Source of the DNA: an uncultured bacterium
Lineage (GTDB): Bacteria > Krumholzibacteriota > Krumholzibacteriia > LZORAL124-64-63
Assembly: GCA_963727525.1 (NCBI GenBank)
Contig: CAVSGO010000007.1
Location: 256,001 to 320,000 of the forward strand
Direction of reading: 5' to 3'
DNA: 64,000 bases
Shown: piece by piece, positions 12,442-63,888 of the stretch
How positions within the stretch are numbered: position 1 is the first letter of the stretch
Layout of the letters: each line of letters begins with the position of its first letter
Position numbers and translations under genes: made by a program
Notes under the pieces: generated by a model
Databases searched by the model: none
The model's input: the letters and a program-made list of their open reading frames with translations, nothing else
Told to the model about the DNA's origin: nothing

Positions 12442-13803
12442 ATGCGATACCTCCTCGTTCCCTGTGCGCTCTTCCTGGCCTCGGCCGTTTCCGCGTCCGC
12501 GTGGACGGAGGGCGCGATCATCACCTCCGACTACAGCGGCAGCGGCGCCGTGAGCACCTTCCTGCGCGACGACCCATGGACCGTCAGCCCGGATCGCGCG
12601 ACGGTTTATCGCGACGCCGTGGCGCACTGGCACGACGGCCTGCTCTACGTCGTCAATCGCGCGGGGGCGGACAACATCCAGGTGCTCGATCCGGCGGCCG
12701 GCTATCAGACCGTGCGGCAGTACAGCCTGGGCACGAACCGGGGCTTGCACGACATCGCCTTCGATACCGAGGGCGAGGCCTACGTGGCGTGCTACGACAC
12801 CGCCGAGCTGCTGCGGATCGATCCGGTCAGCGGGCAGATTCTCGACGTGATCTCCACGGCCGCATGGGCCGATGCCGATGGTCGTCCCGAGACGGGCCAG
12901 CTCCTGGCTGTCGGCGACCGGCTGTTCATCACCTGCGAGCGCCTCGACCGCGGCCACTACTACCAACCCGTCGGCGACAGCTACCTGCTGGTTTGGGACA
13001 TGGCTGCCGAGGCGTGGGAGGGCAGCATCCTGCTCGCGGGGACCGATCCCTATGCCCGGCCTTTCTACGATGGCCAGTATCTCCACGTCGCCTGCATCGG
13101 TGTGTATGGCGTGCTCGACGCGGGGGTCGACGTCGTCGATCCGGTGTCGCTCACGTCCCTCGGATTCGAGATCACGGACGCGCTCGCCGGCGGTGACGTC
13201 CTGGACATCGAGCCGGGGCCGGGCGGCTGGCGCGAGGTCATCGTCAGCGACACGGCGCTGCAGACGAGCGTACGGCGCTACCGAGCGGGCGAAGGCGCGG
13301 CGGCGGTGATCCTGCCCACGAGCGCCTACGACTACGCCGACCTCGCGTTCGACGGCGACTTCCAGCTCTATGTCGCCGACCATTCGGCGTCGGCGCCCGG
13401 CCTGCGGGTCTTCGATGCCGTCAGCGGCGCGGAGCTGACATCGGCGCCCCTCGCCACCGGCTTGCCGCCCGTGTCGATCGTTCTGCCCGAGGGCGCGGTG
13501 GTCGCGGCGCCCGACCTGCCGTCGCCGCACCTGCAACTCGCGGCGCCGTGGCCGAATCCGGCCAACCCTGCCACGCAGGTGGCCTGGACGGCCTCGGCCG
13601 GACAGGCGGTGACGCTGCGCGTGCTCGATCTGCGGGGCCACGAGTTGCAGCGCGTGGCGCGCGTCACCGACGACAGGGGCCACGGGACTTGGCGCTTCGA
13701 CGGTCTCGACGACTGCGGGCGCCGCGTCGCCTCGGGAACTTACCGTCTGGTGGTCGAGGGTGCCGGAGGCTTCGCCGCGCGCAGCTTCAGCCTCGTGCGC
13801 TGA
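12442..13803 (+). CDS. Secreted beta-propeller (YncE/BtuG-like) with FlgD-Ig C-terminal domain
   Basis: AAGGAG RBS, signal peptide, propeller repeats (LYVVNR, AYVACY, LFITCE, LYVAD), PWPNPANP..DG.D..GRRVASGTY tail. Confidence 0.75.
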   Translation: MRYLLVPCALFLASAVSASAWTEGAIITSDYSGSGAVSTFLRDDPWTVSPDRATVYRDAVAHWHDGLLYVVNRAGADNIQVLDPAAGYQTVRQYSLGTNRGLHDIAFDTEGEAYVACYDTAELLRIDPVSGQILDVISTAAWADADGRPETGQLLAVGDRLFITCERLDRGHYYQPVGDSYLLVWDMAAEAWEGSILLAGTDPYARPFYDGQYLHVACIGVYGVLDAGVDVVDPVSLTSLGFEITDALAGGDVLDIEPGPGGWREVIVSDTALQTSVRRYRAGEGAAAVILPTSAYDYADLAFDGDFQLYVADHSASAPGLRVFDAVSGAELTSAPLATGLPPVSIVLPEGAVVAAPDLPSPHLQLAAPWPNPANPATQVAWTASAGQAVTLRVLDLRGHELQRVARVTDDRGHGTWRFDGLDDCGRRVASGTYRLVVEGAGGFAARSFSLVR

Positions 13804-21689: not shown

Positions 21690-23774
21690 ATGAGCCCTTC
21701 AGCCGCGAGGTTCTGCTGCATGCATCCACGTCGTGACTTCCGTCAGGCGCCGCTGGTCGGTGCGTTGATGCTCCTCGTCCTGATGGCGCCGGCCACGGCC
21801 GCGCACGCCTGGCCCGATCACGATCCCAAAGCTCCACCGCCGGACGCGCCGGCCACGCGGGATGCCTGGGAACATAAGATGCTGCCCGCCGGCAATCCCG
21901 AGCATGGCGACGCCGTGGTCACGAGCGACCGCTACGACGTGCGGCGCTACGATCTCGACCTTCGCATCAGTCCCGAGGACACGACCGTCGCCGGCGTGGT
22001 CACGATGATCTTCACCAGCAAGGTGGCCGGGCTCGCGTCGTGCGTGCTCGACTTCGCCAATCGTGGGCTCGATGTCGACGGCGTCAGCGACGGCTCCGGC
22101 GCGCGGCCTTTCGTGCACCAGGGCGACTCGCTCAGCGTCAGCCTGCGCGCACCGCTGGCTGCGGGCGACGTCGACTCGCTGCGCATCGCCTACAGCGGAC
22201 GGCCCGGGAGCCCCGCCGCCGACCGCGGACTCTTCTGGCGCGAGCACTTCCACTGGATTCCGTCCGAGGAGCAGACCGTCGACGGCGGCCGCGCGATCGC
22301 GAACATGAGCGAACCTTCCTATGCGCGTTACTGGTGGCCATGCAAGGATCGGCCCGATGACAAGGCCGACACCGTCCGGGTGGCCGTGACGGTACCCGAC
22401 ACGCTGGAAGTGGCGAGCAACGGGCGGCGCATGGGCGTAACGCCGGCCGAACCCGGCTGGCGCACGACGACCTGGCTCTCCACCTATCCGATCGCGACGT
22501 ACCTCGTGAGCGTGGCGGTGAGCAACTACGCCTACTGGGAAGACGCGTGCACCACGGCGCTCACCACCGACCTGCCGCTCGTGAGCTACGTCTTCCAGCA
22601 ACACCTGGCGAACTCACATGTCGAATTCGCTCCTCTTTGCGACATGATCGACGCCTGCGAGAGCTGGTTCGGCGCGTATCCGTTTGCGCGGGAGAAGTAC
22701 GGTCATGCCGAATTCGTCTGGGGCGGTGCCATGGAACATCAGACCTGTACGAGTCTGGGCGCCGCTTACCTCAACGGGTCGGGCGAATCGAATGCCGAGG
22801 GCGTCATCGTCCACGAACTCGGTCACCAGTGGTTCGGCGATTCCCTCACTCCCGACACCTGGGCCGACATCTGGCTGAATGAGGGCTTCGCCACGTACGC
22901 GGAGGCGCTATGGGCGAGCCGCCAGGATCCTGCTTCGGGCTATCAGGACTACATGAGCGGGATCCGCGATTTCTATGACTGGGTTGGTGACAGCCAGGTG
23001 TACGATCCCGTGCCCGTGTTCCCGGGTTGGGTGATCTACCGCAAGGGCGCCTGGATCCTGCACATGGTGCGCGGTCGCCTCGGCGACGACGCGTTCTTCG
23101 CCATGCTGGAAGACTGGGCCACGGGCGGGGGCCGGCCGTACCACACGGTCACCACCGAGGAATTCATCGACCACGCCAGCTCCTACGCCGGGGAGGATCT
23201 CCACGGGTTTTTCGATCCCTACCTGAAGACGACCGCGTTGCCGCAGGTACGCCTGGCCACGACGATCGCGGACGGACCACGCGGCGCGCAGACACGCCTG
23301 CACGTGGAACTGCAGCAGGTGCAGATGCCGCTTTTCGACAACGTGTATCCCATCCGGGTGGCCACGGCGGCCGGCGATACCACGCTGCGCGTGCGCCTCG
23401 CCGCCGCCAGCGCCGCCACGGTCGTCGACGTCGCCGCGGCCGTGCAGACGGTGACGCTGGATCCCGAGCACTGGGTGCTCTGGCAGAGCACCCGCAGTGG
23501 TCTGCCCCTGCTGGCCGTGCATCCCAATCCCAGCGCCGCGGACGTCACGATCACCTACCGTACGGCGCAGGCACAGGACGTCACATTGAACGTGTACGAC
23601 GTGCGCGGGCGGCTGGTGCGTTCCCTGAATCGGGGCATCATGGCGCCGGGCGAGCATCAGGACACCTGGGATGGGTACGACGACACCAGCCGGCGCGTCG
23701 CGAGCGGCGTCTACTGGATCACGGTGGAGATCGATGGCCGTCGCCAGGTCGGGCGCGTCACGATCGTGCGTTGA
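21690..23774 (+). CDS. Secreted M1 aminopeptidase with FlgD-Ig C-terminal domain
   Basis: GAMEH, HELGH..WLNEGFA, YRKGA; HPNP..YDVRGRLV..WDG..SGVY tail; start uncertain. Confidence 0.9.
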   Translation: MSPSAARFCCMHPRRDFRQAPLVGALMLLVLMAPATAAHAWPDHDPKAPPPDAPATRDAWEHKMLPAGNPEHGDAVVTSDRYDVRRYDLDLRISPEDTTVAGVVTMIFTSKVAGLASCVLDFANRGLDVDGVSDGSGARPFVHQGDSLSVSLRAPLAAGDVDSLRIAYSGRPGSPAADRGLFWREHFHWIPSEEQTVDGGRAIANMSEPSYARYWWPCKDRPDDKADTVRVAVTVPDTLEVASNGRRMGVTPAEPGWRTTTWLSTYPIATYLVSVAVSNYAYWEDACTTALTTDLPLVSYVFQQHLANSHVEFAPLCDMIDACESWFGAYPFAREKYGHAEFVWGGAMEHQTCTSLGAAYLNGSGESNAEGVIVHELGHQWFGDSLTPDTWADIWLNEGFATYAEALWASRQDPASGYQDYMSGIRDFYDWVGDSQVYDPVPVFPGWVIYRKGAWILHMVRGRLGDDAFFAMLEDWATGGGRPYHTVTTEEFIDHASSYAGEDLHGFFDPYLKTTALPQVRLATTIADGPRGAQTRLHVELQQVQMPLFDNVYPIRVATAAGDTTLRVRLAAASAATVVDVAAAVQTVTLDPEHWVLWQSTRSGLPLLAVHPNPSAADVTITYRTAQAQDVTLNVYDVRGRLVRSLNRGIMAPGEHQDTWDGYDDTSRRVASGVYWITVEIDGRRQVGRVTIVR

Positions 23775-42594: not shown

Positions 42595-44931
42595 ATGCAG
42601 CGACAGCGAATACTCGGCCGTGTGCATCTGGCTCTCATCCTCGCGGGCGTCTGGACCTGGTCGGCGGCCTCGGCACAGGCGCGCTGGGAGCCGCTCGCCG
42701 GCGGCGATGGCGCAAGCCGGCCGCATATCAGCGTCGTTGCGCAGACGGCCACGGCGGTCACGGTCGAAGTGACGGTGCCCGGTGTCGAGCTTCGCGACGC
42801 TGGCAGCGGCAGTGCGCGCTACGTCGAGGCTCTGGTGCCTGGTTGCGCCCCGCTGCAGGTGGCCGAGCATCCCGAGGTTCCATTGCTGCCCGTCTCGCTG
42901 GCGATCGCCGGGCAGGGCCACGTGGCCCTGGAGGTGATCGAGGTCGAGACACGCGTGCTGACGACGGCGCCGATCCTGCCGTCGCTCGGCCAGGTGCCCC
43001 GCGACATCGATCCCTCCTCGTTGACGCGGCGCGAGGGCGACGTGTACCGCGATGGTGGCATCTGGCCCCTGGCTGCAGCCACGCTCGGGCAGCCCTACAT
43101 CGTACGGGACGCGCGGGGCGTGACCGTACAGGTGGCTCCCGTACGCTGGGACGCGGTGCACGGCCAGATCATTGCCATGCGGCGCATCGTGCTGCGCGTG
43201 ACCACCCGTGGCGTCGACGGCGTGAACGCGCTGCCGGCCGCCAAGGCGGCGTCCGACGGGTTCTTCCGCAGCGTGACCTCGCGACTCTTCGCCAATGCTT
43301 CCGTCACGGCGCGCGACGATGGCAAGGCCCAGGGCGATCCCGATCCCACGGCCTCCGCGCGCATGATCGTGGTGTGTGGCGACGCGCTCGCGAGCGCCAC
43401 CCAGCCATTCGTCACCTGGAAGCGGCAGCGCGGCATGGACGTGCAGCTGGTGCGCATGAGCGACATCGGTGGCACGGCCGGCGACCTGTACTACGCGGTC
43501 AACCACTGGTTCACGGAGCCGGCCGGACTGGGCTACCTGGTGCTCGTCGGCGACGTCGAGCAGGTGCCGACTCAGACCGGGACCATCCAGGGCGCCGACG
43601 GTGATCAGATCTACGCCCTGCAGGCGGGCAGCGATCTCTTTCCGGATTTCCTCGTCTCGCGCATCTCGGCCCGCAACGCCACCGAGGTGCAGGTGCAGGT
43701 CGCCAAGATCGTCGCCTACGAACGCGATCCCGAGATCGGTGGCGACTGGTACGGCCGCGCCGTGGGTATTGCCAGCGATGAGGGCACCCCGGCCGATTAC
43801 GAGCGCGCCGACCTGCTGCGCGACGATCTGCTGGGTTACGGTTACAGCGACGTCAGCCGCATCTATCAGAGCTTCGGCGGCACCACGGCCCAGATCACGG
43901 CCGATGTGAATGCCGGCGTGGGCGTGATCAACTACATCGGCCATGGCGCGGCCGCCGGATGGCTGAGCGTGCCGTTCGGGGCGAGCCAGGTGCACGCCCT
44001 CGACAACGTGGGCAAGCTGCCCTGGATCATCGACGTGTCCTGCACCACGGGCGACTTCTCGCTGCCCGAGTGCTTCGCCGAGGCGTGGATGCGGTCCGGT
44101 ACGCCATCGGCGCCCACCGGTGCCGTGGGCATCGTGGCGGCGTCGGCCTCGGCGCCCTGGGTGCCGCCCTGCGTGATGCAGTCGGCGATGATCGACCGCC
44201 TCACGTCTTCGGCATCCACCGCCGGCGAATCGATGGAACTTGGCGCTCTGTTCGCCGTGGGCCTGGCCAAGGTTCTCACCGTCTATGACGGGCTGACCGT
44301 GGCGCAGCAGATGGTCGAGGAATACAACCTGCTGGGCGACTGCTCCCTGCAGCTGCGCACGCGGGCGCCGCAGACGCTCGCCGTGGACCGTCCGGCCACG
44401 CTGCTGCCCGGCGCCACGGCGCTGAGCGTGCGTGTCGTCGGCACGCTGTCGACCACGGTCACGCTGACGTCCGGCGCCGAACTGCTCGGCGTCGCGGCCA
44501 CCGGGACGGACGGCCGCGCCACTCTCACGCTGAGCCGTGCCATCTTGGAGGACGAGACGACCACGCTCACCGTCACCGGGGCCGAGTGTGCGCCTTACCT
44601 GGCGACGTTACCGACGGCGACGCAGACCGTGCCCGTCGACGACCTGTCGCCCGCCGTATCGCGTATCGTGGGCAACTACCCGAACCCCTGCAATCCGCAC
44701 ACCACAGTGGCGTTCGCCACGGCGGGGGTGGGCCAGGTGGATCTGCGTATCTATGACCTCCACGGCAGGCTCGTGAGTGAACTGGTGCACGAGACGCTAC
44801 CGGCGGGCGACCACGAGGTGGCCTGGAATGGTGCGGACACGACGGGGCGGCTCGTCGCCTCGGGCTCGTATCTCGCTCGACTCGTGGCCGGTGGCGAGAC
44901 GAGCGTCCGGTCGCTGATGCTCGTGCGCTGA
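42595..44931 (+). CDS. Gingipain-like C25 cysteine peptidase with FlgD-Ig C-terminal domain
   Basis: Propeptide; WKRQRG, LVLVGD, INYIGHG, DVSCTTG, YNLLGD; NYPNPCNP..WNG.D..G..VASGSY tail. Confidence 0.9.
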   Translation: MQRQRILGRVHLALILAGVWTWSAASAQARWEPLAGGDGASRPHISVVAQTATAVTVEVTVPGVELRDAGSGSARYVEALVPGCAPLQVAEHPEVPLLPVSLAIAGQGHVALEVIEVETRVLTTAPILPSLGQVPRDIDPSSLTRREGDVYRDGGIWPLAAATLGQPYIVRDARGVTVQVAPVRWDAVHGQIIAMRRIVLRVTTRGVDGVNALPAAKAASDGFFRSVTSRLFANASVTARDDGKAQGDPDPTASARMIVVCGDALASATQPFVTWKRQRGMDVQLVRMSDIGGTAGDLYYAVNHWFTEPAGLGYLVLVGDVEQVPTQTGTIQGADGDQIYALQAGSDLFPDFLVSRISARNATEVQVQVAKIVAYERDPEIGGDWYGRAVGIASDEGTPADYERADLLRDDLLGYGYSDVSRIYQSFGGTTAQITADVNAGVGVINYIGHGAAAGWLSVPFGASQVHALDNVGKLPWIIDVSCTTGDFSLPECFAEAWMRSGTPSAPTGAVGIVAASASAPWVPPCVMQSAMIDRLTSSASTAGESMELGALFAVGLAKVLTVYDGLTVAQQMVEEYNLLGDCSLQLRTRAPQTLAVDRPATLLPGATALSVRVVGTLSTTVTLTSGAELLGVAATGTDGRATLTLSRAILEDETTTLTVTGAECAPYLATLPTATQTVPVDDLSPAVSRIVGNYPNPCNPHTTVAFATAGVGQVDLRIYDLHGRLVSELVHETLPAGDHEVAWNGADTTGRLVASGSYLARLVAGGETSVRSLMLVR

Positions 44932-45050: not shown

Positions 45051-46586
45051 GTGTCCATGCGCCGTCTGCGCCCCTGGTGGTTCGTCTTCGTCATCGTTCT
45101 TGCCCTTGCTCTGGTCGTTGCGGCGCTGTCGCCCACCTGCATCGTGGCGGCCGTCGTCGATCTCGGTCCCATCCCCGCGACCGAACAGAACGTGCAGGGC
45201 GATCGTCTCCCGCTGGCGACGGATCACGGTTTCCTGTCAACGCAGGAAGACGGTCCTTGCCTGACGGCGTCCCAGCGCGCGGCCATCGTGGCCGATCTCG
45301 CGGCCTCGCGCGCCGCGCTGCAGGCGGCGGGCGTGCTGCCGCCCGTATTCGATCGGACGCAAACGGTCACCCTGCAATGGCCGTTGCAGGCGGCGCCATG
45401 GGTGATGGACCCCGGCGTGCACGGGATCTCGAACTACGTCGACCATGATCCGAGCTACCCGGATCAGCTGCTCGACTACGCGTGCGGCGCGCGCACCTAC
45501 GACCAGGCGAACGGCTACAACCATGCGGGCACCGACTACTTCATGTGGCCCTTTCCGTGGCACAAGATGATCGACCAGGACGTTGCGATCGTGGCGGCCG
45601 CGCCCGGCTTCATCATCCTGAAGTACGACGGGAATTTCGATCGGAGCTGCGGCCTGAATGGTGGGCTCTGGAATGCCGTCTATGTGCAGCACGCCGACGG
45701 GTCTGTGGCGTGGTACGGACACATGAAAGCGGGATCGCTCACCAGCAAGCCCGTGGGGTCCACCGTCGAGGCGGGGGAGTACCTCGGCTCCGTGGGCAGC
45801 TCGGGCAACAGCACGGGCCCGCACCTGCACCTCGAGTTGCACGACGGCAGCGGCAACCTCGTCGATCCTTATCTGGGCCCGTGCAACGCCCTGGACGGCG
45901 AGAGCCGGTGGGCCCAGCAACGGCCCTACGATGATTCCGCCATCAACGCGCTACGCACGCACGATGCGCCACCCGAATGGCCCGACTGTCCCGAGCCGGC
46001 GATCACGCACGAGCAGGATCGGTTCCTCGCCGGCGATCTCGTCTACTTCGCGGCCTACTACCGCGATCAGCTCGCCGGACAGTTGACCCAGTTCGCGGTG
46101 CTGCGTCCGGACGGCTCGACCTGGCGCGCCTGGAGCGGCGGGATGTCGTCGCCAGACCACTACGCCGCGAGCTACTGGTGGTGGAACTGGGTACTGCCCC
46201 CGACGGGGCCCGACGGCTGGTGGACATTCCGCGCCACGTTCGAGGGTCAGACGGTGGAGCATCGTTTCGCGGTCGGTGAGAGCACCCCGGTCCCCGATAC
46301 GTCTCCGGCAGGGCTCACGCTCGCGGCTCCCCACCCCAACCCGGCGAATCCGCGCACGGAGGTCCGCTACACGTTGCCGGCGCCGGGTGCGGTGTGGCTC
46401 TCCGTTTACGATGTGCGCGGTCGCCGTCTCCGGGAGTTGACGCTCGGCGTCCAGGTGCCGGGCGACCACGCCGTGACCTGGGATGGTTGCGATGCCGCCG
46501 GCCGCGATCTGCCGTCGGGCACGTACCTCCTGCGCCTGCAGACCGAAGCCGGCTCCCTCACCCGCAAGGTCCAGCTCGCGCGCTGA
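45051..46586 (+). CDS. Secreted M23 peptidase with FlgD-Ig C-terminal domain
   Basis: HAGTD, YGHM, GSSGNSTGPHLHLE; PHPNPANP..RKVQLAR tail. Confidence 0.9.
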   Translation: MSMRRLRPWWFVFVIVLALALVVAALSPTCIVAAVVDLGPIPATEQNVQGDRLPLATDHGFLSTQEDGPCLTASQRAAIVADLAASRAALQAAGVLPPVFDRTQTVTLQWPLQAAPWVMDPGVHGISNYVDHDPSYPDQLLDYACGARTYDQANGYNHAGTDYFMWPFPWHKMIDQDVAIVAAAPGFIILKYDGNFDRSCGLNGGLWNAVYVQHADGSVAWYGHMKAGSLTSKPVGSTVEAGEYLGSVGSSGNSTGPHLHLELHDGSGNLVDPYLGPCNALDGESRWAQQRPYDDSAINALRTHDAPPEWPDCPEPAITHEQDRFLAGDLVYFAAYYRDQLAGQLTQFAVLRPDGSTWRAWSGGMSSPDHYAASYWWWNWVLPPTGPDGWWTFRATFEGQTVEHRFAVGESTPVPDTSPAGLTLAAPHPNPANPRTEVRYTLPAPGAVWLSVYDVRGRRLRELTLGVQVPGDHAVTWDGCDAAGRDLPSGTYLLRLQTEAGSLTRKVQLAR

Positions 46587-52662: not shown

Positions 52663-54666
52663 CTATTTGACGAGAGTCATCTTTCTCGTCAGCGTCTGCG
52701 CGTCCGTCGCCAGGCGATACACGTAGGTGCCAGAGGCGGCGGCAAGACCCGAGTCGGTCCGGCCGTCCCACACCACGGCGTGATCGCCCGATGCCATCGG
52801 CTCGTTGATCAGAGTGCGTACCATGTGGCCCTGCAGGTCGAAGACCTCCAGGCGCACCGGGCCGCGCTGGTCGAGCACGAAGGCGATCTTCGTGGACGGG
52901 TTGAAGGGGTTGGGCTGGTTCTGGGCGAGCGTCAGCGGGCGCGGCGCTTCGTCCTGGACCGGCGTCGAACCACCGGGGATCAACCAGTCGAGGCTGTTCT
53001 GCATGACGGCGTCGCGACTCGCGGCATCGGCGATGCCTTCCAGGCCGAAGCCGAGGAACACGATCTTGAAGCCGTTCATGTCGGTGCGCGAGCCGGCAAC
53101 GCGATCATTCGCGTAGTCGAAGATCGGCACGGCATCCGAGTAGTAGGTCTGGAACCAGTCGGGGTCGGACTGGTTGTTGGCGCCGTCGCCACCGGTGAGC
53201 TCGAAGGCGAGTCCGTCACCGATGGCATCGTCCGCCACACCCACGACCGAAGTACTGCCGGAGTTGCCACCGCGGAGGCGAATCCGGGTCTTGTTCTGGA
53301 ACCAGGTATTGAGGCCGTCGGCGTAGAGCGCCTCGGCGAGGTCCTGGCCCGACCAGAGCATGCGGCCGCCGGCGCCGAGGTAGGCGTCGATGGCGTCGCG
53401 GTCTTCGGCGTTGAAGCCGGGGTTCGCGTTGCCGCAGGCCCACACGACGGCGTCGAACATGCCGAGCGACGCCGCGTCGACCGTGGTCAGCGAACGGTTC
53501 CAGATCGTCACCGTCCGCCCGGCCGCGGTGATGGCCGGTTCGAAGTAGTCGGCGGCATAGCCCGCGTCGGCATCGTCGGCGATGAGCAGCACGTCGCGGC
53601 CGCCGGGCACCGCGAGGAAGCTCGCGGAGGCCACGGTCGCCTGGGCGCCCTGGCTATGCACGTTCAGCGTCACGGTGCCGTAGTCCGCGTCGGCCGCGTC
53701 CGTGGTCACCACGAGCTGCGTCGTGCCGAAGCTGGGGATCGGCACCGTCACGCTGGTGCCGTCCACACCATCGTGCGTGAAGTGGGCCGACCAGCCGGTC
53801 GGAAGCTGCGACGTGTCCAGCGTGATGTCGTAGACGTCGTCTTCCAGACCGAAGTTGGTGACGGTGGCCGTGCCGAAGACCAGCGGTCCGCCGGTCGCGA
53901 CGGCCTGCTGCTGTCCGTCAACGGCAACGCCGCCGGCGAACGGCAGGCTGCGGCTGTTGCCGCTGTTGTAGATGAACTTGTCGGTGTCGCGCTGTACCCA
54001 GACGATCGCTTGCATGTTCGCCGGGTTCCAGTCACCCATGACGAAGGGCAGCGTGACCGTCTGGATGTCGCCGATGTTCTGGGCCGTCAGCGGCGTGCCG
54101 GTGGCGTTGGGAAGCATGTCGCGCAGCACGTGTTCGAACGTGCGCGGTGCGTAGTAGAGGTCGCTCTCGACGATCGCGACACGCAGGTACGTGTTGGCGA
54201 TACTCGCAAGGTTCTCTCCGACGATCTCCACCTGCGCCGTCACGGAGGCGTTCCCGGGGGTGAAACTGTAGGCCTCCACCGTCACCGAGACCGGCGTGGT
54301 GTTTGTCCAGTGGTTCTCGATCACCGGGAAGTAGAGATGCCCGTCCATGGCGTCCGTACCGGCTCCGACGATGTGGTAGAACCCATCGAAGTAGAGGTCG
54401 GGGATGCCGCTCATGCTGTAATAGCTCTGACGCTGATCCGATTCCGGACAGCTCAGACCACCGCTCGATGCGAGGTAGTTGATGTAATTGAACTGGGTCG
54501 GTTGGTAGGTGTCCTCGCACACGGCGAGTCCCGCTTCAGCGTTGGGGCAGTACACTCACCAGGTGGCGGCGCCCAGCTCGGCCAAGACCGTGCGGGGCAC
54601 CTGGGCGTTGGCGACGGCGCTCGTCATCAAGACGCCGAACACCAGCAGCGACAGCATGCGCTTCAT
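52663..54666 (-). CDS. Secreted Omp28/thioredoxin-fold selenoprotein A (667 aa, Sec37) with FlgD-Ig C-terminal domain
   Basis: GGAGG RBS, ATG 54666, signal peptide, RTVLAELGAATW-TGA(54556-54558)-VYC in frame, GIPDLYFDG, HVLRDML, NQPNPFNP..RKMTLVK. Confidence 0.88.
54517..54555 (-). promoter_or_regulatory. SECIS-like hairpin A
   Basis: 39 nt after UGA; CGC-UGAA-GCG apical stem-loop 17 nt from the UGA, with an extended lower stem (folded by eye). Confidence 0.6.
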
Positions 54667-54811
54667 GGTTTTCCTCCGGAGGGTTGGCAGCTTCGAACAT
54701 GCCCGCGGGCATATGCTTCGACGATAGCACATGCTCCTCGAGTATACCAGTGTAACCTGATGGGAATTGATGTTTTAAAACGGTTCTCATGATCAGGATG
54801 CCTGCCTGTGG

Positions 54812-54841
54812 CACGGCCTCCCACCGGAGCGGGAGGCCGTG
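54812..54841 (-). terminator. Hairpin after selenoprotein B
   Basis: CACGGCCTCCC-N8-GGGAGGCCGTG; similar to the hairpin at 57011. Confidence 0.6.
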
Positions 54842-54860
54842 ACGTCGGCACGAGGATGCC

Positions 54861-56870
54861 CTATTTCACCAGGGTCATCTTCCTCGTCAGCGATTGCGTG
54901 TCGGTCTGCAGGCGGTACACATAGGTGCCGGAAGCGGCGCTTGGACCGTTATCGGTCCGGCCGTCCCACACCACGGTGTGGTCACCCGCGTCCATAGCTT
55001 CGCTGGCCAGCGTACGCACCAGGCGGCCCTGCAGGTCGAAGACCTCCAGCCGCACGGGACTCCGCTGGTCGAGAACGAAGGCGATCTTGGTCGACGGGTT
55101 GAAGGGATTGGGCTGGTTCTGGGCGAGCGCCAGGGGTTTCGGGGCCTGGTCCTCGACCGGCGTCGACGTGGTGCCGATCAGCCAGTCGAGGCTGCTGTCC
55201 ATGACGCTGTTGCGGTCCGCCTGGTCGGCGATGCCCTCGAGGCCGAAGGCCAGGAACACCAGCTTGTAGCCCGTGATCTCGATGCGGCTGCCTGCCAGCG
55301 CGCCGGTGCCATACTGGAATACCGGGATGGCGTCGGCGGTCAGTGTCTCGATCACGTCGGGGTCGCTCTGATTGTTGGCGCCGTCGCCGCCGTTCAGGGT
55401 GAACGCGAGCCCGTCGCCGATGGGATCGTCGGCCACGCCGGTGATGGCAAGGTTGCCGGAATTGCCGCTGACGACTCGGCAGCGGGTCTTGAATTGCATC
55501 CAGAGGTTGGCCGAGCCACCTTCGGCCTGCAGGTCCTGGGCGATGTCCTGACCCGTGATGAGGATCTTGCCGCCGGCCGTGAGGTAAGTGTCGATCGCGG
55601 CGCGATCGGCCGCCTCGAGACCGGGATTGGTGCCGCCGCAGGCCCACACGACCGCGTCGAAGTGACTCAGCACACTGCCGTCGAGCGCCGTCAGGTTGCG
55701 GTCCCACACGGAGTACGTGCGGGCCGACGCGCCGACCGCGGGACCGACGAAGTCGGTGGCGATGTTGTCCAGGCCGTCATCGGCGACCAGGAGCACGGTC
55801 TTGGTACCCGACACTGCGACGAAGTCGAGGGAGGCGACGTTGGAACCCGCTCCCTGGCTGGCGATGTTCAGCGTGACCTGTCCGCTTTGGTCGTCGGCCG
55901 CGTCGATCGTCACGACGAGGTCAAGGCTGTTGAAGCTGGCGAGCGGCAGCGTCATGCTCGTGGCGTCGGCGCCGTCGTGCGTGAAGTGCGCGTCCCAGCC
56001 GGCCGGAAGGCTGCCCAGTTCCAGGCTGATGTCGTAAACATCGTCCTCGAGGCCCAGGTTCGTGACCGTGGTGTTGCCGAAGGCTACCGGGCCGCCCTCG
56101 GAGACTGCCTGCTGCGCGCCATCGATGGCCACGCCGGCCGCGAAGGGCACCATGAGGCTGTTGCCGCTGTTGTAGATGAACTTGTCGGAGTCGCGCTGCA
56201 CCCAGACGATGATCTCCAGGTTCGCGCTGTTCCAGGCGCCCATGGTGAACGGCAGGGTGAACTCTTGCGTCTCGCCGCTGTTCTGGATGGTCAACGGCGT
56301 GCCCGTTGCGCTCGGCAGCATGTCGCGCAGTACGTGCTCGTACGTCGAACCGCCATACACGACATCGTTCTCGATGATCGCCGCGCGCACGTAGGTGTTC
56401 GCGGTGCTCGTGAGACTGCCGTCGATGAGTTCCACGCGCACGGTCGCGTACGCGTTGCCGGGCGCGAAGCTGAAGTCCGTCACGGCGACCGCAACGGGTG
56501 TGGAGTTGGTCCAGTGATCCTCGATGATCGGGACGTAGATGTGTCCGTCCTGGGCATCGGACCCGGCTCCGACAAGGTGGTAGTAGCCGTCGAAGAACAG
56601 GTCGGGAATGCCGCCCATCCCGTAATAGCTCATGCGCTGGTCCGATTCCGGGACGCTCAGGCCACCCGAGGAGGCCATGTAGACGATGTAGTTGAACTGT
56701 GTCGGATAGTAGGTGTCCCCGCACACGGCGAGGCCCGCTTCAGCGTTGGGGCAGTACACTCACCAGGTGGCTGCGCCGAGCTCGGCCAGCACCGTGCGTG
56801 GCACCTGGGCAGTAGCGACGGCACTGATCAGAAGCAGGCTGACCGCCACCAGCGATAGCAATCGCTTCAT
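54861..56870 (-). CDS. Secreted Omp28/thioredoxin-fold selenoprotein B (669 aa, Sec37) with FlgD-Ig C-terminal domain
   Basis: GGAGG RBS, ATG 56870, MKRLLSLVAVSLLLISAVATAQVPRTVLAELGAATW-TGA(56760-56762)-VYC in frame. Confidence 0.88.
56721..56759 (-). promoter_or_regulatory. SECIS-like hairpin B
   Basis: Differs from hairpin A at one of 39 nt; same UGAA loop. Confidence 0.6.
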
Positions 56871-57007
56871 GGTTTTCCTCCGGAGGTTGGCAGCTTTGAA
56901 CGATGCCCGTAGGCGTCTGGTGATTTTAGCATGATCTTTATGGAGAATCCAAGTTCAACTTTCGGTTGCTCAAATAAAGAAACAATACTCATTATCTTTT
57001 GACAACG

Positions 57008-57042
57008 AAAATCCGGCCCCCCACCAGAGTGGGAGGCCGGAT
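57008..57042 (-). terminator. Intrinsic terminator after selenoprotein C
   Basis: ATCCGGCC..CCCAC/GTGGG..GGCCGGAT stem followed by a U run on the minus strand. Confidence 0.75.
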
Positions 57043-57069
57043 CGTACGACAAGGGCTCGCAGCGTGTAT

Positions 57070-59085
57070 CTACTTGACCATCAACATCTTCCGTGTCAGA
57101 CGCTGGTTGCCCGCATCCAGGCGATACACGTACGTGCCCGACGCGGCCTGCTGACCGGCGTCAGTGAGACCGTTCCAGACCACGGCGTGGTCACCGGCCG
57201 CCATCGCCTCGCCTGCCAGCAGCGTGCGTACGAGGCGGCCCTGCAGATCGAAGACCTGTAGGCTCACCGGTCCGCGCTGGTTGAGCGCGAAGGCGATCTT
57301 GGTCATCGGGTTGAACGGGTTGGGCTGGTTCTGGGCGAGTGCCAGGGCCTTCGGGGCCTGGTCCTCGACCGGTGTCGACGTGGTGCCGATCAGCCAGTCC
57401 AGCGAGTTGTGCATGACCATGTCACGATCGGCCTGACTGGAGATGCCCTCGAAGCCGAAAGCCAGGAACACCAGCTTGTATCCCGAGATCTCGATCCGGC
57501 TGCCGGCCAGTGAGCCATCGCCGTAGTGGAACACGGGAATGGCGTCGGCCGTCAGCGTCTCGATGACATCCGGGTCGGTCTGGTCGTTGGCGCCGTCGCC
57601 ACCGTTGAGCGTGAAGCTCAGACCATCGCCGATCACATCGCCCGACTCACCGTCGATCTGGAAGTTGTTCGAGTTGCCGTTGAGGAACCGGCAGCGAGTC
57701 TTGAACTGCATCCAGAGGCTGGCCGAACTGCCCTCGGCGGCGAGGTCCTGGGCCACGTCCTGTCCCGTGATCAGGAGGCTGCCGCCGGCGGCGAGATAGG
57801 TGTCGAGTGCTGCGCGGTCGGTGTCGCGCAGACCGGGATTGGTACTGCCGCATTCCCAGATGACGGCATCGTAGTCCGTCAAGACGTTGCCATCGACCGG
57901 ACCCAGCGACCGTTCCCAGGTCGCGTAGGACTTGCCGGCGGACATGATGGCGGGGCCGAAGTACGGATCGGTGAGTCCGGCACCGTCATCGTCGGCGACC
58001 ACCAGCAGATCGGTGCCGCCGGCGAGGCCGGCGAAGGTCAGCGTCTTCACGACTTCCTGACCGGCCTGGCTGAACACCGTGAGGTCGGTACGGCCGGAGC
58101 CGCTCGCGCCCGGCATCATCGTCACGACGAGGTCTGTGCTCGTGAACGGATCCAGTGTCACCGTCGTGCTCGTGCCGTCGACACCGTCATGCGTGAAGTG
58201 GGCGCTCCAGCCCGCGGGCAGCGACGACGTATCGAGCGAGATGTCGTAGGTGTCCTGCTCGGTACCCACATTCACGATGCTCGTCGTGCCGAACACGATG
58301 GGATCGGAACCCTGCGCGATGACCTGCTGGGGACCGTTCACCGCGGCCTGCACCGAGTAGGGGCCGACCTCGCTGTTGCTGCTGTTGTAGATGAACTTGT
58401 CGGTGTCACGCTGCACGAACACGATCGCGTTCATGTTGGTAGCATTCCACGTGCCCATCGTGAACGGCAGGTGCAGGGTCTGCTCCTCGCCGTCGTTCTG
58501 GATCGTCAGTGGCGTGCCGGCCGCATTGGGCAGCATCTTGCGGCAGATGTGGGTGTAGTACTCGTGTCCACCGTACGTGAGGTCGTCCTCGATCAGGACG
58601 ACGCGGATGTACGTGCTGGCGTTGCTCGCCAGGTCGCCGAAGAGCTTCACCTTCACATCGACGAATGCGTCGGTGTGGTCGAACGACCAGTCCGTCACTG
58701 CGCACGCGACCGGTGTGGTGTTGAGGAAGTGGTTGTCGATGATCGGGATATAGGTGTGCCCGTCGACTTCACCGGATCCGGCGCCCACGACCTGCTGGTA
58801 ACCGTCCCACCGCAGGGTGGGGAAGCCGGTCACGCCGTAGTAACCGATGCGCGTCTGCGAGTCCGGGTTGTTGAGCCCGCCGGAGTTGTCCTCGTAGCAG
58901 ACGTACTTGAACTGGGAGTCTTCATAGAGGCCGTCGCACACGGCGAGGCCCGCATAAGCGTTGGGGCAGTACACTCACCAGGTGGCCGAGGCCATCTCGC
59001 AAAGCACCGTCCGGGGCACCTGGGCCGACGCCACAGCGCCGCACAGCAGAATGCCGAGCGCAACGGTAGTAGCCAGTCGCTTCAT
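57070..59085 (-). CDS. Secreted Omp28/thioredoxin-fold selenoprotein C (671 aa, Sec37) with FlgD-Ig C-terminal domain
   Basis: GGAGG RBS, ATG 59085, MKRLATTVALGILLCGAVASAQVPRTVLCEMASATW-TGA(58975-58977)-VYC in frame; GFPTLRWDG; RKMLMVK. Confidence 0.87.
58936..58974 (-). promoter_or_regulatory. SECIS-like hairpin C (variant loop)
   Basis: Same stem as B, but the loop is UUAU. Confidence 0.5.
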
Positions 59086-59295: not shown

Positions 59296-61281
59296 TCAGT
59301 AGCGGAATACCCCGAAGCATTCCACGCCCTCGAACGCCGGCTCGAACTTGCAGACGCCGCCCGAGCACAGGTAGCCCGCCTGGCGCTTGCCGAACCACAC
59401 GTTCAGGCTGCCGCCGTCGTCGAGGGTGTAGCTCACCTGGCCGGCGGGGAAGCTGCTGCCCTGCACCTCGCCCGAGCCGAGCTGGGCGTCGAACTTGTTG
59501 TTGGTCTCGAGGATCGCGTCGAAGGCCCAGTGGGGCGCGATCTCGTGCTCCAGCTTGTACCACTGCTGGTCGTACTTGCCCAGCACGCCCAGGCGCACAT
59601 GTTGCTGCTCGGCCTGCAGCGTCCAGCTGCGGACGGCGCTCTGGTACCAGGTGAGTTCGCCGATCACGGTCTGGCGGATCGCATCCTCACTATCGCGATA
59701 GCCGAATCCGGCGCGGAACCGGAAGTCGCCGAGGCGCTCCTGTTCGAGGTGGCCGTAGATCTCCTCGAAGAGATGCTCGTTCGCGTGGTTGGCGATGCGG
59801 CTCGCATTCGCGAGGGCGTTCCAGCCGTGGGGGCCGGTGTAATTGGCTTCCACCTGCCAGCCCTTCTCATCGTCGGGATCGAGGTTGTGCGGCGCGCGGT
59901 TCAGCAGCGTGTAGATGTGCTCGCGCACCAGGGCGGGCGGACGGTTGAGCGGCTGCTTGCCGTCGGCGCGCTTGATCACCGAAAAGTCACGGTAGTCGCT
60001 GTGTTCCACCGAGAGGCTGACCGGTCCTGTGTACAGGTTCAGATTGCCGTAGTAGGCCTTCCCCGGGGCCTTGTCGAGCGTGGTGGGATCGACGTCGAAA
60101 CCGGTCTTGTGACCGTACTCGAAGTAGGCGTCGCCCTTGCCGAAGAAGAGGCTGGCGCGGCCCGAGGCCACCCACTCGCGCTTGATGTCATCATGCGAGG
60201 GGAGCAGCGACGGCTCGTAGGTCAGGGCCGTGCCTCCCACCTTGAACGCCCATGGCAGTCCGAGCGCCCCGGCGAGCGGCACGTCGAAGGCCGCATCGAG
60301 GCCGCGCACGTCGACGTCGGCGATCTCCGCGCCACTGGTGGCATCGAGCACGCTGGCGGTGCCGGTGGTGCCCGAAAAGACCTGCATGTCGGCGGGGCCG
60401 GCCTGGCCGCGCACGTAGATGCCGTCGAGGCTCGTGTCGACGCGGATGTTGCGATCCTCGTAGCTGTTGAAGACGATGCCGCGGCCGAACATGCCGTAGA
60501 ACTGGCCCACCCGCACGAACGCGTCGCCATTGTTGTACTCGAAGAAGCGGTGGACGATCTTGTTGCGCCGGTTGCCCTCCTCGCTCGGCGCCTGGTGGTC
60601 GAGCAGGATGCCGGTGCGGAAGTCGCCGAAGAGGTACACGACGTCGAGCCAGTTCTCCACCTGCTCCTCGTCGGAGCTGGTGTCGTACTTGTACTTGAAC
60701 TGATCGCGCACGCTGAGCGCATCGCGCCAGTCCACGCCGCCGGTGCCCGCGGAGGCGGCGAGCGGCTCGGTCGGCTGCGTGAGCAGCGTCTCCAGCGCGA
60801 GCCGCACCTCTTCCTCGTCGCCGTCCTTGTAGCCGATGTGGCGGAACGCTTCGGCGCCATTCGCGTCGAATACGACCACGAAGGGAATCATGCCGCCGAT
60901 CTGCATGATCTGCTGCACGTCGCCCGCCGTGTCGAGGGCCACGATCACGTCGTCGTAGCCGCGCGACTGCACGTAGGGCTGCACCTTCGCCACGCTCTTG
61001 CTGTTGTCGATGTTCACGGCGATGAATGTGGCCTTGCTCGCGTACTCGCCGGCGAGCCGATTCATCTGCGGTAGTTCCTTGAGGCACGGGTTGCACCACA
61101 GCGCCCAGAACGACACGACCACCGGCCCCTGGGCCAGTTGCTCGCGCAGGTTCACCGTGCCGCCGCTGGCGGTGGGCAGGGTCCAGTCGGTGCTCAGGTA
61201 ATCGACGGCGGCCGCCGGCAAGGCGGCGCCGGCGAGAATGAGCAGGGCGAGGAATTGCAAAGCCCGGCGGTGGACCACCAT
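59296..61281 (-). CDS. TlpA thioredoxin fused to an outer-membrane beta-barrel (DUF6029-like)
   Basis: Signal peptide; SFWALWCNPC..ELP, IPF; then amphipathic strands (GQFYGMFGRG..SYEDR..DTSLDG) ending GKRQAGYLCSGGVCKFEPAFEGVECFGVFRY. Confidence 0.82.
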   Translation of the reverse strand: MVVHRRALQFLALLILAGAALPAAAVDYLSTDWTLPTASGGTVNLREQLAQGPVVVSFWALWCNPCLKELPQMNRLAGEYASKATFIAVNIDNSKSVAKVQPYVQSRGYDDVIVALDTAGDVQQIMQIGGMIPFVVVFDANGAEAFRHIGYKDGDEEEVRLALETLLTQPTEPLAASAGTGGVDWRDALSVRDQFKYKYDTSSDEEQVENWLDVVYLFGDFRTGILLDHQAPSEEGNRRNKIVHRFFEYNNGDAFVRVGQFYGMFGRGIVFNSYEDRNIRVDTSLDGIYVRGQAGPADMQVFSGTTGTASVLDATSGAEIADVDVRGLDAAFDVPLAGALGLPWAFKVGGTALTYEPSLLPSHDDIKREWVASGRASLFFGKGDAYFEYGHKTGFDVDPTTLDKAPGKAYYGNLNLYTGPVSLSVEHSDYRDFSVIKRADGKQPLNRPPALVREHIYTLLNRAPHNLDPDDEKGWQVEANYTGPHGWNALANASRIANHANEHLFEEIYGHLEQERLGDFRFRAGFGYRDSEDAIRQTVIGELTWYQSAVRSWTLQAEQQHVRLGVLGKYDQQWYKLEHEIAPHWAFDAILETNNKFDAQLGSGEVQGSSFPAGQVSYTLDDGGSLNVWFGKRQAGYLCSGGVCKFEPAFEGVECFGVFRY

Positions 61282-61396: not shown

Positions 61397-62533
61397 CTAC
61401 TTGACGAGCGACATCTTCACTGTCTGGGTCTGCGCGCCGACCTGGACCTTTGCCAGGTACACGCCCGTGCCCAGGGGATCGCCCGCGCCGTCGCGGCCGT
61501 CCCAGCTCACGCTCTGGCTGCCCGGGGCGACGAGCCCGGCATCGAGCGTGCGCACCTTCTGACCGCGCACGTCGTAGATGTCGATCGCTGCCGGCAGGGC
61601 ATGGTCGCCACCCACAGCGAAGCGGATCTCCGTGCGCGGATTGAACGGGTTCGGCGTTGCCTGCACCCCGCTCAGCAGCGGCTGCGCCATGTCTTCCACG
61701 CCCACGAGGCCTTCGGTGGACACGTAGTACGTGTACGATCCCACGACGGCACCATCGGTATTGCTGGCGATGTTCAGCGTCATCGAACCTGCACCCGTGG
61801 TGAAGAGGGGTGTGAAGTCGAGGTCGAAGTCGAGGAAGCCGCCGCTCGCGACGACACCAGTGACGGGCACGGTGAAGTCGGTCTGCGACGGCGGGTAGCA
61901 GATGCCGTCGTAGCACACGGTCGCGCTCCAGTCCAACGGCATGTCGCGAGTCACGGTCAGCGTGTAGCTGTCGTCCTGCATGCCCGTATTGAAGAGCGCG
62001 GTGTGGAAGCGCACGACTTCACCGTTGTTCGCCGGCAGTATGTTGGCGCCGGGGGCGAACGTGAAGGCCACGGGTGCGTCGCTCAGGGGAAGCACGGTGT
62101 ACGTCACATGCTCGTCGTAGCTCGGGTCGCTATTACTCGTGATGTTGATCGTGTAGGTTCCCGGTCCCTCGGTCACCAGCGTCGTGATGTCGAGATCGAC
62201 CTCAGTGGTTTCGCCCGGCGCGAGCGTACCGGTCTCGGGCACGATGAAGTCGACCAGGTCCGGCGTGTAGCAGACGCCGCCGTAGCATACGCTGAGGGTC
62301 CAGTCGTCGGGAATGTCCTTGGTGACTGTCAGGTGGAAGGTGTCGGCGTTCTCGCCGGTATTCGTGAGTTGCGCGATCACCTGATAGTACGAGAAGATCG
62401 GCATCACCACCGTGGTGGGGCCTGGGTTGTACTGGAGACCGTGGGGTGCTGCCAGGGCGGGGCCGGCGGTGAGGGCCAGCATGAGGCCGCCGGCCAGGCT
62501 ACAGAGGCAAGCGAGCTTGCGCAGGGTCGACAT
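61397..62533 (-). CDS. Secreted protein with two CxxGxC-containing Ig-like repeats and FlgD-Ig C-terminal domain
   Basis: Repeats WTLSVCYGGVCY and WSATVCYDGICY; TPNPFNP..WDGRD..GVY..KMSLVK. Confidence 0.82.
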   Translation of the reverse strand: MSTLRKLACLCSLAGGLMLALTAGPALAAPHGLQYNPGPTTVVMPIFSYYQVIAQLTNTGENADTFHLTVTKDIPDDWTLSVCYGGVCYTPDLVDFIVPETGTLAPGETTEVDLDITTLVTEGPGTYTINITSNSDPSYDEHVTYTVLPLSDAPVAFTFAPGANILPANNGEVVRFHTALFNTGMQDDSYTLTVTRDMPLDWSATVCYDGICYPPSQTDFTVPVTGVVASGGFLDFDLDFTPLFTTGAGSMTLNIASNTDGAVVGSYTYYVSTEGLVGVEDMAQPLLSGVQATPNPFNPRTEIRFAVGGDHALPAAIDIYDVRGQKVRTLDAGLVAPGSQSVSWDGRDGAGDPLGTGVYLAKVQVGAQTQTVKMSLVK

Positions 62534-62536
62534 GAG

Positions 62537-63817
62537 TTACCTCCCGGAATGCAGGGGTGGAGGGGGGGACGTGGCGGCGCGCGCGGTGTTCGTCAGCGTA
62601 GAACCGGCCTGGACCACGACTTTATCACTGGTGCGCTGGACGAAGGCCACCAAGGCCTTGCCATGCGGCGTCAAGATCGAGACGGGGTTGGTGGTGGGAT
62701 CGGGTTCGACGAGGGTGACAGAATAGTCGTGCAGTCCGGCCGCGAGCGCGCCCAGGTTCATCGAGGCCACGACGTGATCGCGGACGACGTTGTGGAACGT
62801 GCTGACGCCCTGATACACGGCCGCCGTCTCGACCTCCTCGTAGGTCAGGACGACACTCAGCGAGTAGCCGGTGAGATCGACGTCGGCAGGCAGATCGAGC
62901 GTGACGGTGGCGTCGACATTGAGATCGCTGAAATCGGGCGTCGGGATGATGATCGCGAAATCGGCGTCCCCGCTCTCCGCGACGATGCTGCTTTGCATCG
63001 CGGTGACGCCCGGCGGGGTGCCATAGGCACCGGCCAGAGCGCCATCGATGAAGAGCGACGGGTGGTTGAAGGAACCAGCCGGATTGTAGTACGCCATGCG
63101 CGCGTCCATCACCTGCTGCGACGTCCAGTAGAAGGGATCGGCGGGTGTGGGCACGTCTCCCACCCATTTCACGTAGATGACCTGGTCGGCGCCGTAGCCC
63201 GGTTGGCTCTGCAAGTACTCCACGTTGGCGTTGAAGGCCGGACAGCCGGTGCAGTGTACGTTGGAGAATCCCTCGAACAGCACGATGCGTGCGATGGCGA
63301 GCGAGGTAAGGGCGAAGTCGGCGGTGGCCGTCTCTTCGGCCACGACCGACACCTCCCGCGACTCCGGGTCGACGTCGAATCCATCCAGGACCACCGACAC
63401 CATGTGATCGCCCGGCAACAGGTCGGTGAAGGTGTGGGGCGTGAGGAACCCGCTATCGGTGCCGTCGAGCATGATCGCGGCGCCGGCCGGCGTCGACGTG
63501 ACGGTGAGGCCGCCCACGTGCGCGGCGAGCGTGAAGTCCGCACCTGCCGTGCCCCCGTAGGGGACGGTGACGGTGCGCTGGGCCGGGATCGGTGTGTGGT
63601 CTGCGAGTTCGACCGCGATATTGTACGTGCCACCTTCAACGTCAGTGAAGGTATGGGGAGTCACGTACGCGGTCACGGCGCCGTCGAGGCGGATGGCGGC
63701 CCCGGAAGGATCGGACGTGACCGTGAGGTCGCCAGGGGCCGGGGCTTCGCGGCCGCAGGCGGCCACGAGTACCAGCGTGACGAGGACGATGGCGAGAGCA
63801 GAGTGGCGGACGCGCAA
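62537..63817 (-). CDS. Lipoprotein with two PEGA domains and an Omp28/thioredoxin-like CxxC domain
   Basis: TTG start after GGAGGG; lipobox VAAC; two VTS.P.GAAI.LDG..TP repeats; RIVLFEGFSNVHCTGC, HPSLFIDG, NVVRD. Confidence 0.85.
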   Translation of the reverse strand: MRVRHSALAIVLVTLVLVAACGREAPAPGDLTVTSDPSGAAIRLDGAVTAYVTPHTFTDVEGGTYNIAVELADHTPIPAQRTVTVPYGGTAGADFTLAAHVGGLTVTSTPAGAAIMLDGTDSGFLTPHTFTDLLPGDHMVSVVLDGFDVDPESREVSVVAEETATADFALTSLAIARIVLFEGFSNVHCTGCPAFNANVEYLQSQPGYGADQVIYVKWVGDVPTPADPFYWTSQQVMDARMAYYNPAGSFNHPSLFIDGALAGAYGTPPGVTAMQSSIVAESGDADFAIIIPTPDFSDLNVDATVTLDLPADVDLTGYSLSVVLTYEEVETAAVYQGVSTFHNVVRDHVVASMNLGALAAGLHDYSVTLVEPDPTTNPVSILTPHGKALVAFVQRTSDKVVVQAGSTLTNTARAATSPPPPLHSGR

Positions 63818-63888
63818 CGCGTAACCCTCCGGGGTTGAGGATGAGGGTGGGGGCGCTTGCGAAATCATGCGGCACACGACGAAAGCCC

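Follow-up and report, generated by a model that had tools for sequence, protein, structure and literature searches.

How are three tandem genes to be read when each is crossed by an in-frame TGA? The question is raised by the minus strand of a 64,000-nucleotide stretch of DNA (hereafter, the window) from an uncultured member of the Krumholzibacteriota (assembly GCA_963727525.1, contig CAVSGO010000007.1; genome in 8 contigs, 96.7% complete). Under translation table 11, open reading frames (ORFs) encoding 630, 632, and 634 amino acids lie at 52663..54555, 54861..56759, and 57070..58974, and all of them start with GTG. Upstream of each ORF, in all three copies, stand GGAGG, six bases, an ATG, 36 sense codons, and then TGG TGA GTG TAC TGC CCC. 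An earlier interpretation made from the DNA letters (the sequence-only reading) had taken the GTG-start ORFs for truncation artefacts, and the arrangement on which it relied, with GGAGG, ATG, 36 codons, and TGA at codon 37, was verified in every copy. We argue that each gene very probably encodes one precursor of approximately 670 residues whose UGA codon 37 is translated into selenocysteine, and that the predicted product is an exported thiol-disulfide exchanger of the HBP35/Omp28 type, tagged for the type 9 secretion system (T9SS).

Three Tandem Genes With an In-Frame TGA

When TGA is translated as selenocysteine (U), three minus-strand genes running from ATG to TAG are obtained. Gene 1 (52663..54666) encodes 667 residues (P0001), gene 2 (54861..56870) encodes 669 residues (P0002), and gene 3 (57070..59085) encodes 671 residues (P0003). 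The selenocysteine codons, placed by translation and by tblastn alignment, are at 54556..54558, 56760..56762, and 58975..58977 of the minus strand, and U is residue 37 in all three proteins. The read-through proteins have the motif QVPRTVL.E...ATW-U-VYCPNA in common, and their genes are separated by spacers of 194 and 199 bases. Across their full length, copies 1 and 3 share 67 and 62% of residues with copy 2; for the N-terminal 260 residues the identities are 70 and 56%. The copies have thus diverged, as the sequence-only reading had stated. Copies 1 and 2 form sister branches (support 96/91) in a maximum likelihood tree of N-terminal domains, and the set of three would have arisen by tandem duplication.

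Probable Selenocysteine at Codon 37

The host genome holds the whole set of genes that the sequence-only reading had proposed to look for. It contains selA (462 bits), selB (302 bits, above its cut-off), selD (365 bits), and a tRNA-Sec gene with anticodon TCA (70.4 bits; gathering score, 47). The selD gene (locus L010, G000:C8:225636-226547, minus strand) also encodes a selenoprotein; its single in-frame TGA lies at AKSAG-U-AAK. On comparative grounds, UGA at codon 37 would be decoded as selenocysteine by this host SelA/SelB/SelD/tRNA-Sec machinery.

The conservation of the TGA was followed across the phylum by searching 208 of its genomes with the first 260 residues, stops being read through. 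Matches at E ≤ 1e-5 occur in 92 of the 208 genomes, and in 58 of the 125 of high quality. The best matches (E ≤ 1.5e-41, n = 47) contain exactly one TGA in 44 cases and none in three. Such a recurrence of an in-frame TGA across the phylum is far beyond chance. It also bears on the idea that these are pseudogenes or that the TGA was introduced by misassembly, for which nothing speaks beyond the stop codon as such. Since three diverged paralogues and those 44 best matches, spread over many genomes, all have TGA in the same column, and since some 630 codons after it are intact, we regard the likelihood of pseudogenes or misassembly as close to nil.

At the residue opposite position 37, tblastn over 32 loci showed 30 stops and two Cys residues. 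Both Cys loci (L042 and L047) read ATW-C-GYCP. Three full-length database homologues with 97-100% query coverage (P0030, P0042, and P0052) carry ATW-C-xYCP, and Cys occupies the selenocysteine column in loci L058-L060 as well. The Cys/TGA pairs that the sequence-only reading had suggested seeking by tBLASTn therefore exist. They also weigh against near-cognate decoding of UGA as Cys or Trp, or a reassigned code, in place of selenocysteine. This alternative draws on the folding tests and RNAalifold analysis described below, which demonstrate no selenocysteine insertion sequence (SECIS). Against it stand the complete selenocysteine machinery, with a selD that has UGA at its canonical site, and the occurrence of Cys, the classic partner of selenocysteine, at the homologous position of two of 32 loci and of the three database proteins. 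Moreover, TGA is still an ordinary stop in this genome, terminating the adjacent gene at 59296..61281, and the TGA of family members, single in 44 of the 47 best matches, invariably falls on the redox site. Readthrough to Cys or Trp is accordingly very improbable in our judgment.

The stretch before the TGA has the character of coding sequence. Over the 16 codons that precede it, variability by codon position is 0.16/0.09/0.33, and pairwise synonymous codon differences number 2487 of 4815 in frame; the two shifted frames give 493 of 5017 and 312 of 4734. The pattern of variability and the synonymous excess indicate that this stretch is coding and in the same frame as the downstream part. The rival view is that the TGA is a real stop, that the protein starts at the GTG behind it, and that the 36-codon ORF either goes untranslated or specifies a leader peptide of its own. 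A GTG does follow the TGA directly in the three window copies, and gene callers choose it. Among the 32 loci the codon after TGA is GTG in just six and ATG or TTG in none; the other 26 have GGC, GGA, ACC, AGC, and similar codons. Initiation at the downstream GTG, which the sequence-only reading had named as a danger to its proposal, is therefore not general. In addition to the same-frame coding constraint on the 16 upstream codons, a protein starting at GTG would lose its signal peptide, its first thioredoxin strand, and its nucleophile, and the Cys homologues run continuously through the site. We give a genuine stop at codon 37 hardly any credence. Each gene would instead yield a single precursor of approximately 670 residues rather than a 36-codon stub and a 630-residue protein.

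The machinery, the conservation of the TGA, the Cys partners, and the coding stretch upstream are together the comparative marks of a selenoprotein, and they bear out the selenoprotein proposed from the sequence. Continuous coding sequence spanning the UGA and exchange of selenocysteine and Cys at the nucleophile position are well supported by these sequence comparisons. Selenocysteine is a more reactive nucleophile than Cys.

As the sequence-only reading had anticipated, standard gene callers miss such genes. Of 52 family members in the databases, 49 extend over no more than 94% of the read-through sequence; being truncated by gene callers, they lack the signal peptide, the first strand, and the catalytic residue. 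Their entries go by the names "hypothetical," "FlgD Ig-like domain containing," or "Omp28-related outer membrane protein."

Candidate Hairpins Downstream of the UGA

A candidate SECIS hairpin with modest support from pair counts was located at nucleotides 28-49, counted from the U of the UGA. It lies on the minus strand at 54510..54531 in gene 1 (stem CUCGC/GCGAG, loop CGUGU), at 56714..56735 in gene 2, and at 58929..58950 in gene 3 (GGCCUCGC CGUGU GCGA-C-GGCC). In the alignment, 73.8% of cells are paired as against 31-58% in slid controls, and the covariation score is 0.275 as against at most 0.156, although relatedness alone can yield figures of both kinds. One pair switches from U-A to C-G in seven sequences. 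A second, proximal hairpin at nucleotides 14-29 is 76.7% paired but shows little covariation (0.133, a value that 12 of 500 shuffles attained and that one slid control, at 0.186, surpassed).

Several folding tests lend no support to a structured element at this place. The 69 nucleotides after the UGA are no more stable than dinucleotide shuffles in the three genes (minimum free energy z of 0.94, 1.04, and -0.48). Compared with synonymous-codon shuffles, 30 orthologues have a mean z of -0.24 (20 of 30 negative), which is no significant excess of stability. Measured against further windows of their own genes, 41 selenocysteine loci have a mean z of -0.44 (25 of 41 negative), and the three genes studied here give 0.17, 0.80, and -0.50 against their own other windows. 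RNAalifold on 30 sequences returned no consensus pair, and an Rfam search at E ≤ 10 returned no SECIS and four unrelated weak matches.

DNA likeness between the paralogues is 0.92, 0.78, and 0.75 over the 60 nucleotides after the TGA (54556-54498, 56760-56702, and 58975-58917, minus strand) as against 0.79, 0.66, and 0.69 over codons 1-37. The greater likeness after the TGA fits a double constraint by the active site and an RNA element, although the active site alone could suffice. A candidate hairpin within the 50 nucleotides after the UGA would probably help selenocysteine decoding.

The Redox Domain and Its Likeness to HBP35

The structure of the gene 2 protein was modeled with AlphaFold2 (mean predicted local distance difference test score, pLDDT, of 89.5 over its full length; a separate model of residues 21-245 reached 94.3). 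Residues 1-21 (MKRLLSLVAVSLLLISAVATA; 56808..56870, minus strand) are recognized from the sequence and from a low-pLDDT N-terminal helix as a signal peptide with a predicted cleavage site. Residues 22-240 (56151..56807, minus strand) make up the HBP35/Omp28-type domain, in which a thioredoxin fold with U37-V-Y-C40-P is joined to a β-sandwich. The model of this N-terminal domain matches HBP35 (5y1a) at Z 23.6, with a root-mean-square deviation (rmsd) of 2.3 Å over 209 residues and a Foldseek E value of 4.6e-11. It matches Atu2684 (2axo) at Z 18.4, and many thioredoxins match residues 3-102 of the domain model at Z 9-11. The model has strands at 27-33, 59-65, 90-93, and 97-100 and helices at 40-53, 74-83, and 113-120, with U-x-x-C at the N-terminus of helix 1. 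The thioredoxin-type active site with selenocysteine that the sequence-only reading had suspected is thus in keeping with the modeled thioredoxin-like fold.

A profile of 29 N-terminal domains finds the HBP35 sequence at E 2.4e-6 and places the selenocysteine column on the first Cys of WCGYCP. In these 29 sequences, which represent four architectures, the U/C column (C17), the Cys three positions later (C20), and a Pro (P69) are invariant. We infer that P69 is the cis-Pro of the thioredoxin loop. The active site would accordingly consist of U37-x-x-C40-P and this Pro.

HBP35 is a T9SS cargo of Porphyromonas gingivalis that is displayed on the surface and bound to anionic polysaccharide, according to the study that describes it (PMC2907840). 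In the same study, recombinant HBP35 outpaces Escherichia coli thioredoxin in insulin reduction, and this activity is lost in the double mutant C48S/C51S (PMC2907840). Because recombinant HBP35 acts in vitro through the two homologous cysteines, we propose that the selenol/thiol pair of the window proteins would perform thiol-disulfide exchange, as a reductase or an isomerase, on surface or extracellular substrates. It weighs against this proposal that the redox function is transferred by analogy from HBP35 at 17% identity.

Remaining Domains and the Proposed Route of Export

A whole-model Foldseek search returned mainly large multidomain proteins, such as glycoside hydrolase family 2 (GH2) glycosidases and biofilm or S-layer proteins. 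Being swamped by these, it had to give way to searches at the level of the domain. We read residues 245-354 of the gene 2 protein (55809..56138, minus strand), which are all-β in the model, as immunoglobulin-like (Ig-like) from the strand pattern of the modeled secondary structure. Residues 356-568 (55167..55805, minus strand) form a GATase1-like α/β domain with fold matches at Z 13-18 (5xb7 at 18.1, 2gk3 at 16.9, 4jqs at 16.3), the best being non-catalytic domains of GH42 and ThuA-like proteins. Look-alikes of this middle domain in the Atlas (DUF4960, the β-galactosidase trimerization domain, and ThuA; all below 0.9) serve as leads only and agree with the fold search. Among 48 sequences, no Cys or His of this domain is found in an invariant or near-invariant column. 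A class I glutamine amidotransferase was considered and rejected, since the Cys and His of a Cys-His-Glu triad are not conserved.

Residues 586-669 (54864..55115, minus strand) form a T9SS type-A sorting/FlgD-Ig-like domain. The proteins encoded by genes 1, 2, and 3 score 26.9, 33.1, and 30.5 bits with TIGR04183 (cut-off 23 bits), a result that agrees with the signal peptide and T9SS-like C-terminal domain described in the sequence-only reading. The tails of the three proteins pass the FlgD_ig model (PF13860) at 37.7-50.5 bits, gene 2 giving the highest of these scores. The gene 2 tail superposes on the C-terminal domain of PorU (6za2) at Z 12.2 with 25% identity, and the host genome has a SprA homologue (480 bits, above cut-off). 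The tail pattern PNPFNPxTxI is widespread, occurring in genomes labeled Cloacimonadota, Ignavibacteriota, Calditrichia, Bacteroidota, Fibrobacteraceae, and others. The alignment-based locus search rested on this pattern only and returned tail-bearing proteins of many phyla, not members of the family.

The product would thus have five parts: a Sec-type signal peptide, the HBP35/Omp28-type domain, the Ig-like domain, the non-catalytic GATase1-like domain, and the T9SS sorting domain. After export to the periplasm, it may pass the outer membrane through the T9SS, lose its tail, and be displayed on, or released from, the cell surface. Two results weigh against this route. The Pfam model Por_Secre_tail stays below its cut-off (13.7-20.9 against 27), and the PorV-like gene of the host, at 91 bits, falls far short of its cut-off of 250.

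These same two results favor a reading in which the proteins are true selenoproteins with a FlgD-Ig-like tail that is not a working T9SS signal. FlgD_ig passes where Por_Secre_tail does not, and the proteins would then work, as Dsb-like oxidoreductases for instance, in the periplasm or on the periplasmic side of the outer membrane. An adjoining gene for a periplasmic TlpA-like redoxin is suggestive of periplasmic redox traffic, and HBP35 complements an E. coli dsbA mutant, as stated in the study describing it (PMC2907840). Set against this are TIGR04183 scores above the cut-off in all three copies, the superposition of the tail on PorU, the SprA homologue, and the occurrence of the tail pattern in so many phyla. 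We consider a periplasmic location unlikely, although it deserves to be kept in view, and we prefer the route through the T9SS to the cell surface.

Tails of the T9SS/FlgD type were found by tblastn with the gene 2 tail in four further ORFs of the window (E 5e-9 to 1e-19), all on the plus strand, at 13519-13800, 23502-23771, 44620-44928, and 46281-46583. Putative T9SS cargo is thus abundant in the window.

Architectures and Exchange of Selenocysteine and Cys in the Phylum

The same selenocysteine domain occurs in other exported architectures. A short form of approximately 350 residues has only the T9SS tail (L052-L054 and L061), and a long form of approximately 870 residues has repeats of the FG-GAP/VCBS type (L055-L057). 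Cys forms of the domain are found at L058-L060. The sources label the homologues Krumholzibacteria or Eisenbacteria.

The maximum likelihood tree of 29 N-terminal domains includes five Cys rows and requires four changes of the selenocysteine/Cys label. Three of the Cys rows are nested singly in selenocysteine clades, namely L042 (sister of the selenocysteine form L045, support 100/99), L047, and L058. The other two, L059 and L060, pair together, and the pair is the sister of the short selenocysteine forms L052/L053. As the tree has a midpoint root only, the direction of these changes is not proven.

A little-studied phylum thus retains selenocysteine over Cys in 44 of the 47 closest members of the family and uses it in several exported architectures. 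From this retention and these architectures it follows that the demand for selenium would reach the cell surface in these organisms. The mechanism of decoding and the redox chemistry would be the textbook ones.

Neighboring Genes

Directly upstream of the selenoprotein genes, at 59296..61281 on the minus strand, is the gene for a 661-residue protein in which a TlpA-like redoxin (WCNPC; Redoxin, 50.6 bits) is fused to DUF6029 (148 bits). Farther upstream, at 62537..63877 on the minus strand, lies a lipoprotein-like Cys paralogue with two PEGA domains (69.4 bits) and an Omp28-like domain that carries VH-C-TG-C-P. Its N-terminus has a lipobox-like LVAAC, and it is without a T9SS tail. The selenocysteine site aligns to this protein without gaps (FEGFSNVH-C-TGCP versus AELGAATW-U-VYCP), so the pairing of TGA with the first Cys of a neighboring lipoprotein, as given in the sequence-only reading, was reproduced.

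Between these two genes (61397-62533, minus strand) is encoded a 378-residue protein with a signal peptide and a tail of the T9SS/FlgD type. It has two internal repeats, each with C-Y-x-G-x-C-Y-x-P. A motif resembling that of the repeats, C-x-x-x-x-C-Y-P-P-W, was noticed in the Cys-form homologues L059 and L060.

The arrangement of PEGA-Cys paralogue, 378-residue protein, TlpA-DUF6029 fusion, and selenoprotein genes within approximately 10 kb recurs in one of eight other genomes (G109, of the closest genus). With so little recurrence, no operon-level link is claimed.

A bolder reading can be built on these observations. In this phylum, selenocysteine may by default serve as the nucleophile in a whole set of surface redox proteins exported by the T9SS, with at least three architectures, which would be fed electrons by a dedicated outer-membrane route, there being no NADPH-linked reductant outside the cell. 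The TlpA-like redoxin-DUF6029 fusion would be a candidate for the electron conduit. We offer this as speculation that is rather improbable as a whole. If true, it would give the first described selenoprotein cargo of the type 9 secretion system.

Comparison With Known Systems

The kind of selenoprotein described here is already known. GOS_C was described from ocean metagenomes as a set of 74 selenocysteine and 312 Cys sequences with a thioredoxin-like fold and an unknown function (PMC2398784, Zhang and Gladyshev, 2008). A 2026 review lists the model NF045500 as "Hypothetical protein GOS_C" with the motif UxxC (PMC13188914). NF045500, an "Omp28-related selenoprotein," matches residues 26-251 of the window proteins, including the selenocysteine site, at E 1.7e-7 to 1.5e-12. 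Both GOS_C/NF045500 and the window proteins have UxxC in a thioredoxin-like fold, and that they share the selenocysteine column is suggested by the model coordinates only. The claim in the sequence-only reading that this is an unusual location for bacterial selenocysteine was overstated, since the related GOS_C/NF045500 has been in print since 2008.

The window proteins differ from GOS_C/NF045500 in size and in score. The model has 377 positions, whereas the window proteins have approximately 670 residues with extra domains. The curated cut-off is 200 bits; the products of genes 1, 2, and 3 score 31.0, 47.6, and 40.8 bits, and the other architectures in the phylum score 38-71 bits (38-66 for L052-L057 and L061), likewise below it. 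Across the 208 genomes of the phylum no match to NF045500 lies above the cut-off, the best reaching 71.8 bits. With scores so far below it, the window proteins form a separate, larger branch. They are a divergent branch of a family that was predicted in 2008, and the gain is incremental.

The relationship with Omp28 is of a similar kind. PF11551 (Omp28) matches residues 77-242 at 29.4, 32.5, and 34.5 bits against a gathering score of 34.9. The precomputed database list assigns PF11551.15 to copies 2 and 3 in their truncated versions (P0004 and P0008) and not to the truncated copy 1 (P0006). Omp28 of P. gingivalis (2R2C) superposes on the β-sandwich half of the domain (Z 11.9, rmsd 1.9 over 98 residues). 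With NF033782, the "Omp28 family outer membrane lipoprotein," the scores are 14.7-20.1 bits where 150 are required, and, unlike those lipoproteins, the window proteins have a plain signal peptide.

In the literature searched, the link between a selenoprotein and the T9SS appears not to be in print, though the GOS_C family is. Omp28 and selenoprotein were not found together in the full-text literature, and selenocysteine and type IX secretion were found together only incidentally. For Krumholzibacteria or Eisenbacteria with selenocysteine or selenoprotein, the sole full-text item naming the lineage is an ecogenomics study. The consulted portion of the BSepDB paper (PMC13326102) does not mention Omp28, the outer membrane, a signal peptide, or secretion, and its supplements or website may list this branch. 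Omp28 is likewise absent from the consulted portion of the Haft 2022 preprint, the supplements of which may also list the branch. The 2026 review, in the part available, mentions no T9SS tail, secretion, or signal peptide for UxxC selenoproteins (PMC13188914).

The UxxC selenoproteins of the thioredoxin, glutaredoxin, redoxin, and DsbA-like kinds, as presented in that part of the review (PMC13188914), are like the window proteins in having selenocysteine at the N-terminal CxxC position of a thioredoxin fold, in having Cys orthologues, and in being truncated by gene callers. They belong to a different domain family, and most of them are single-domain proteins. A close parallel is the 35-kDa hemin-binding protein HBP35 (5Y1A), which has in common with the window proteins the thioredoxin fold joined to a β-sandwich, the motif W-[C/U]-x-Y-C-P, a signal peptide, and a T9SS C-terminal domain. 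The window proteins differ from it in having selenocysteine in place of the first Cys, in sharing only 17% identity with it, and in coming from a different phylum, and they add the Ig-like and GATase1-like domains between the redox domain and the tail.

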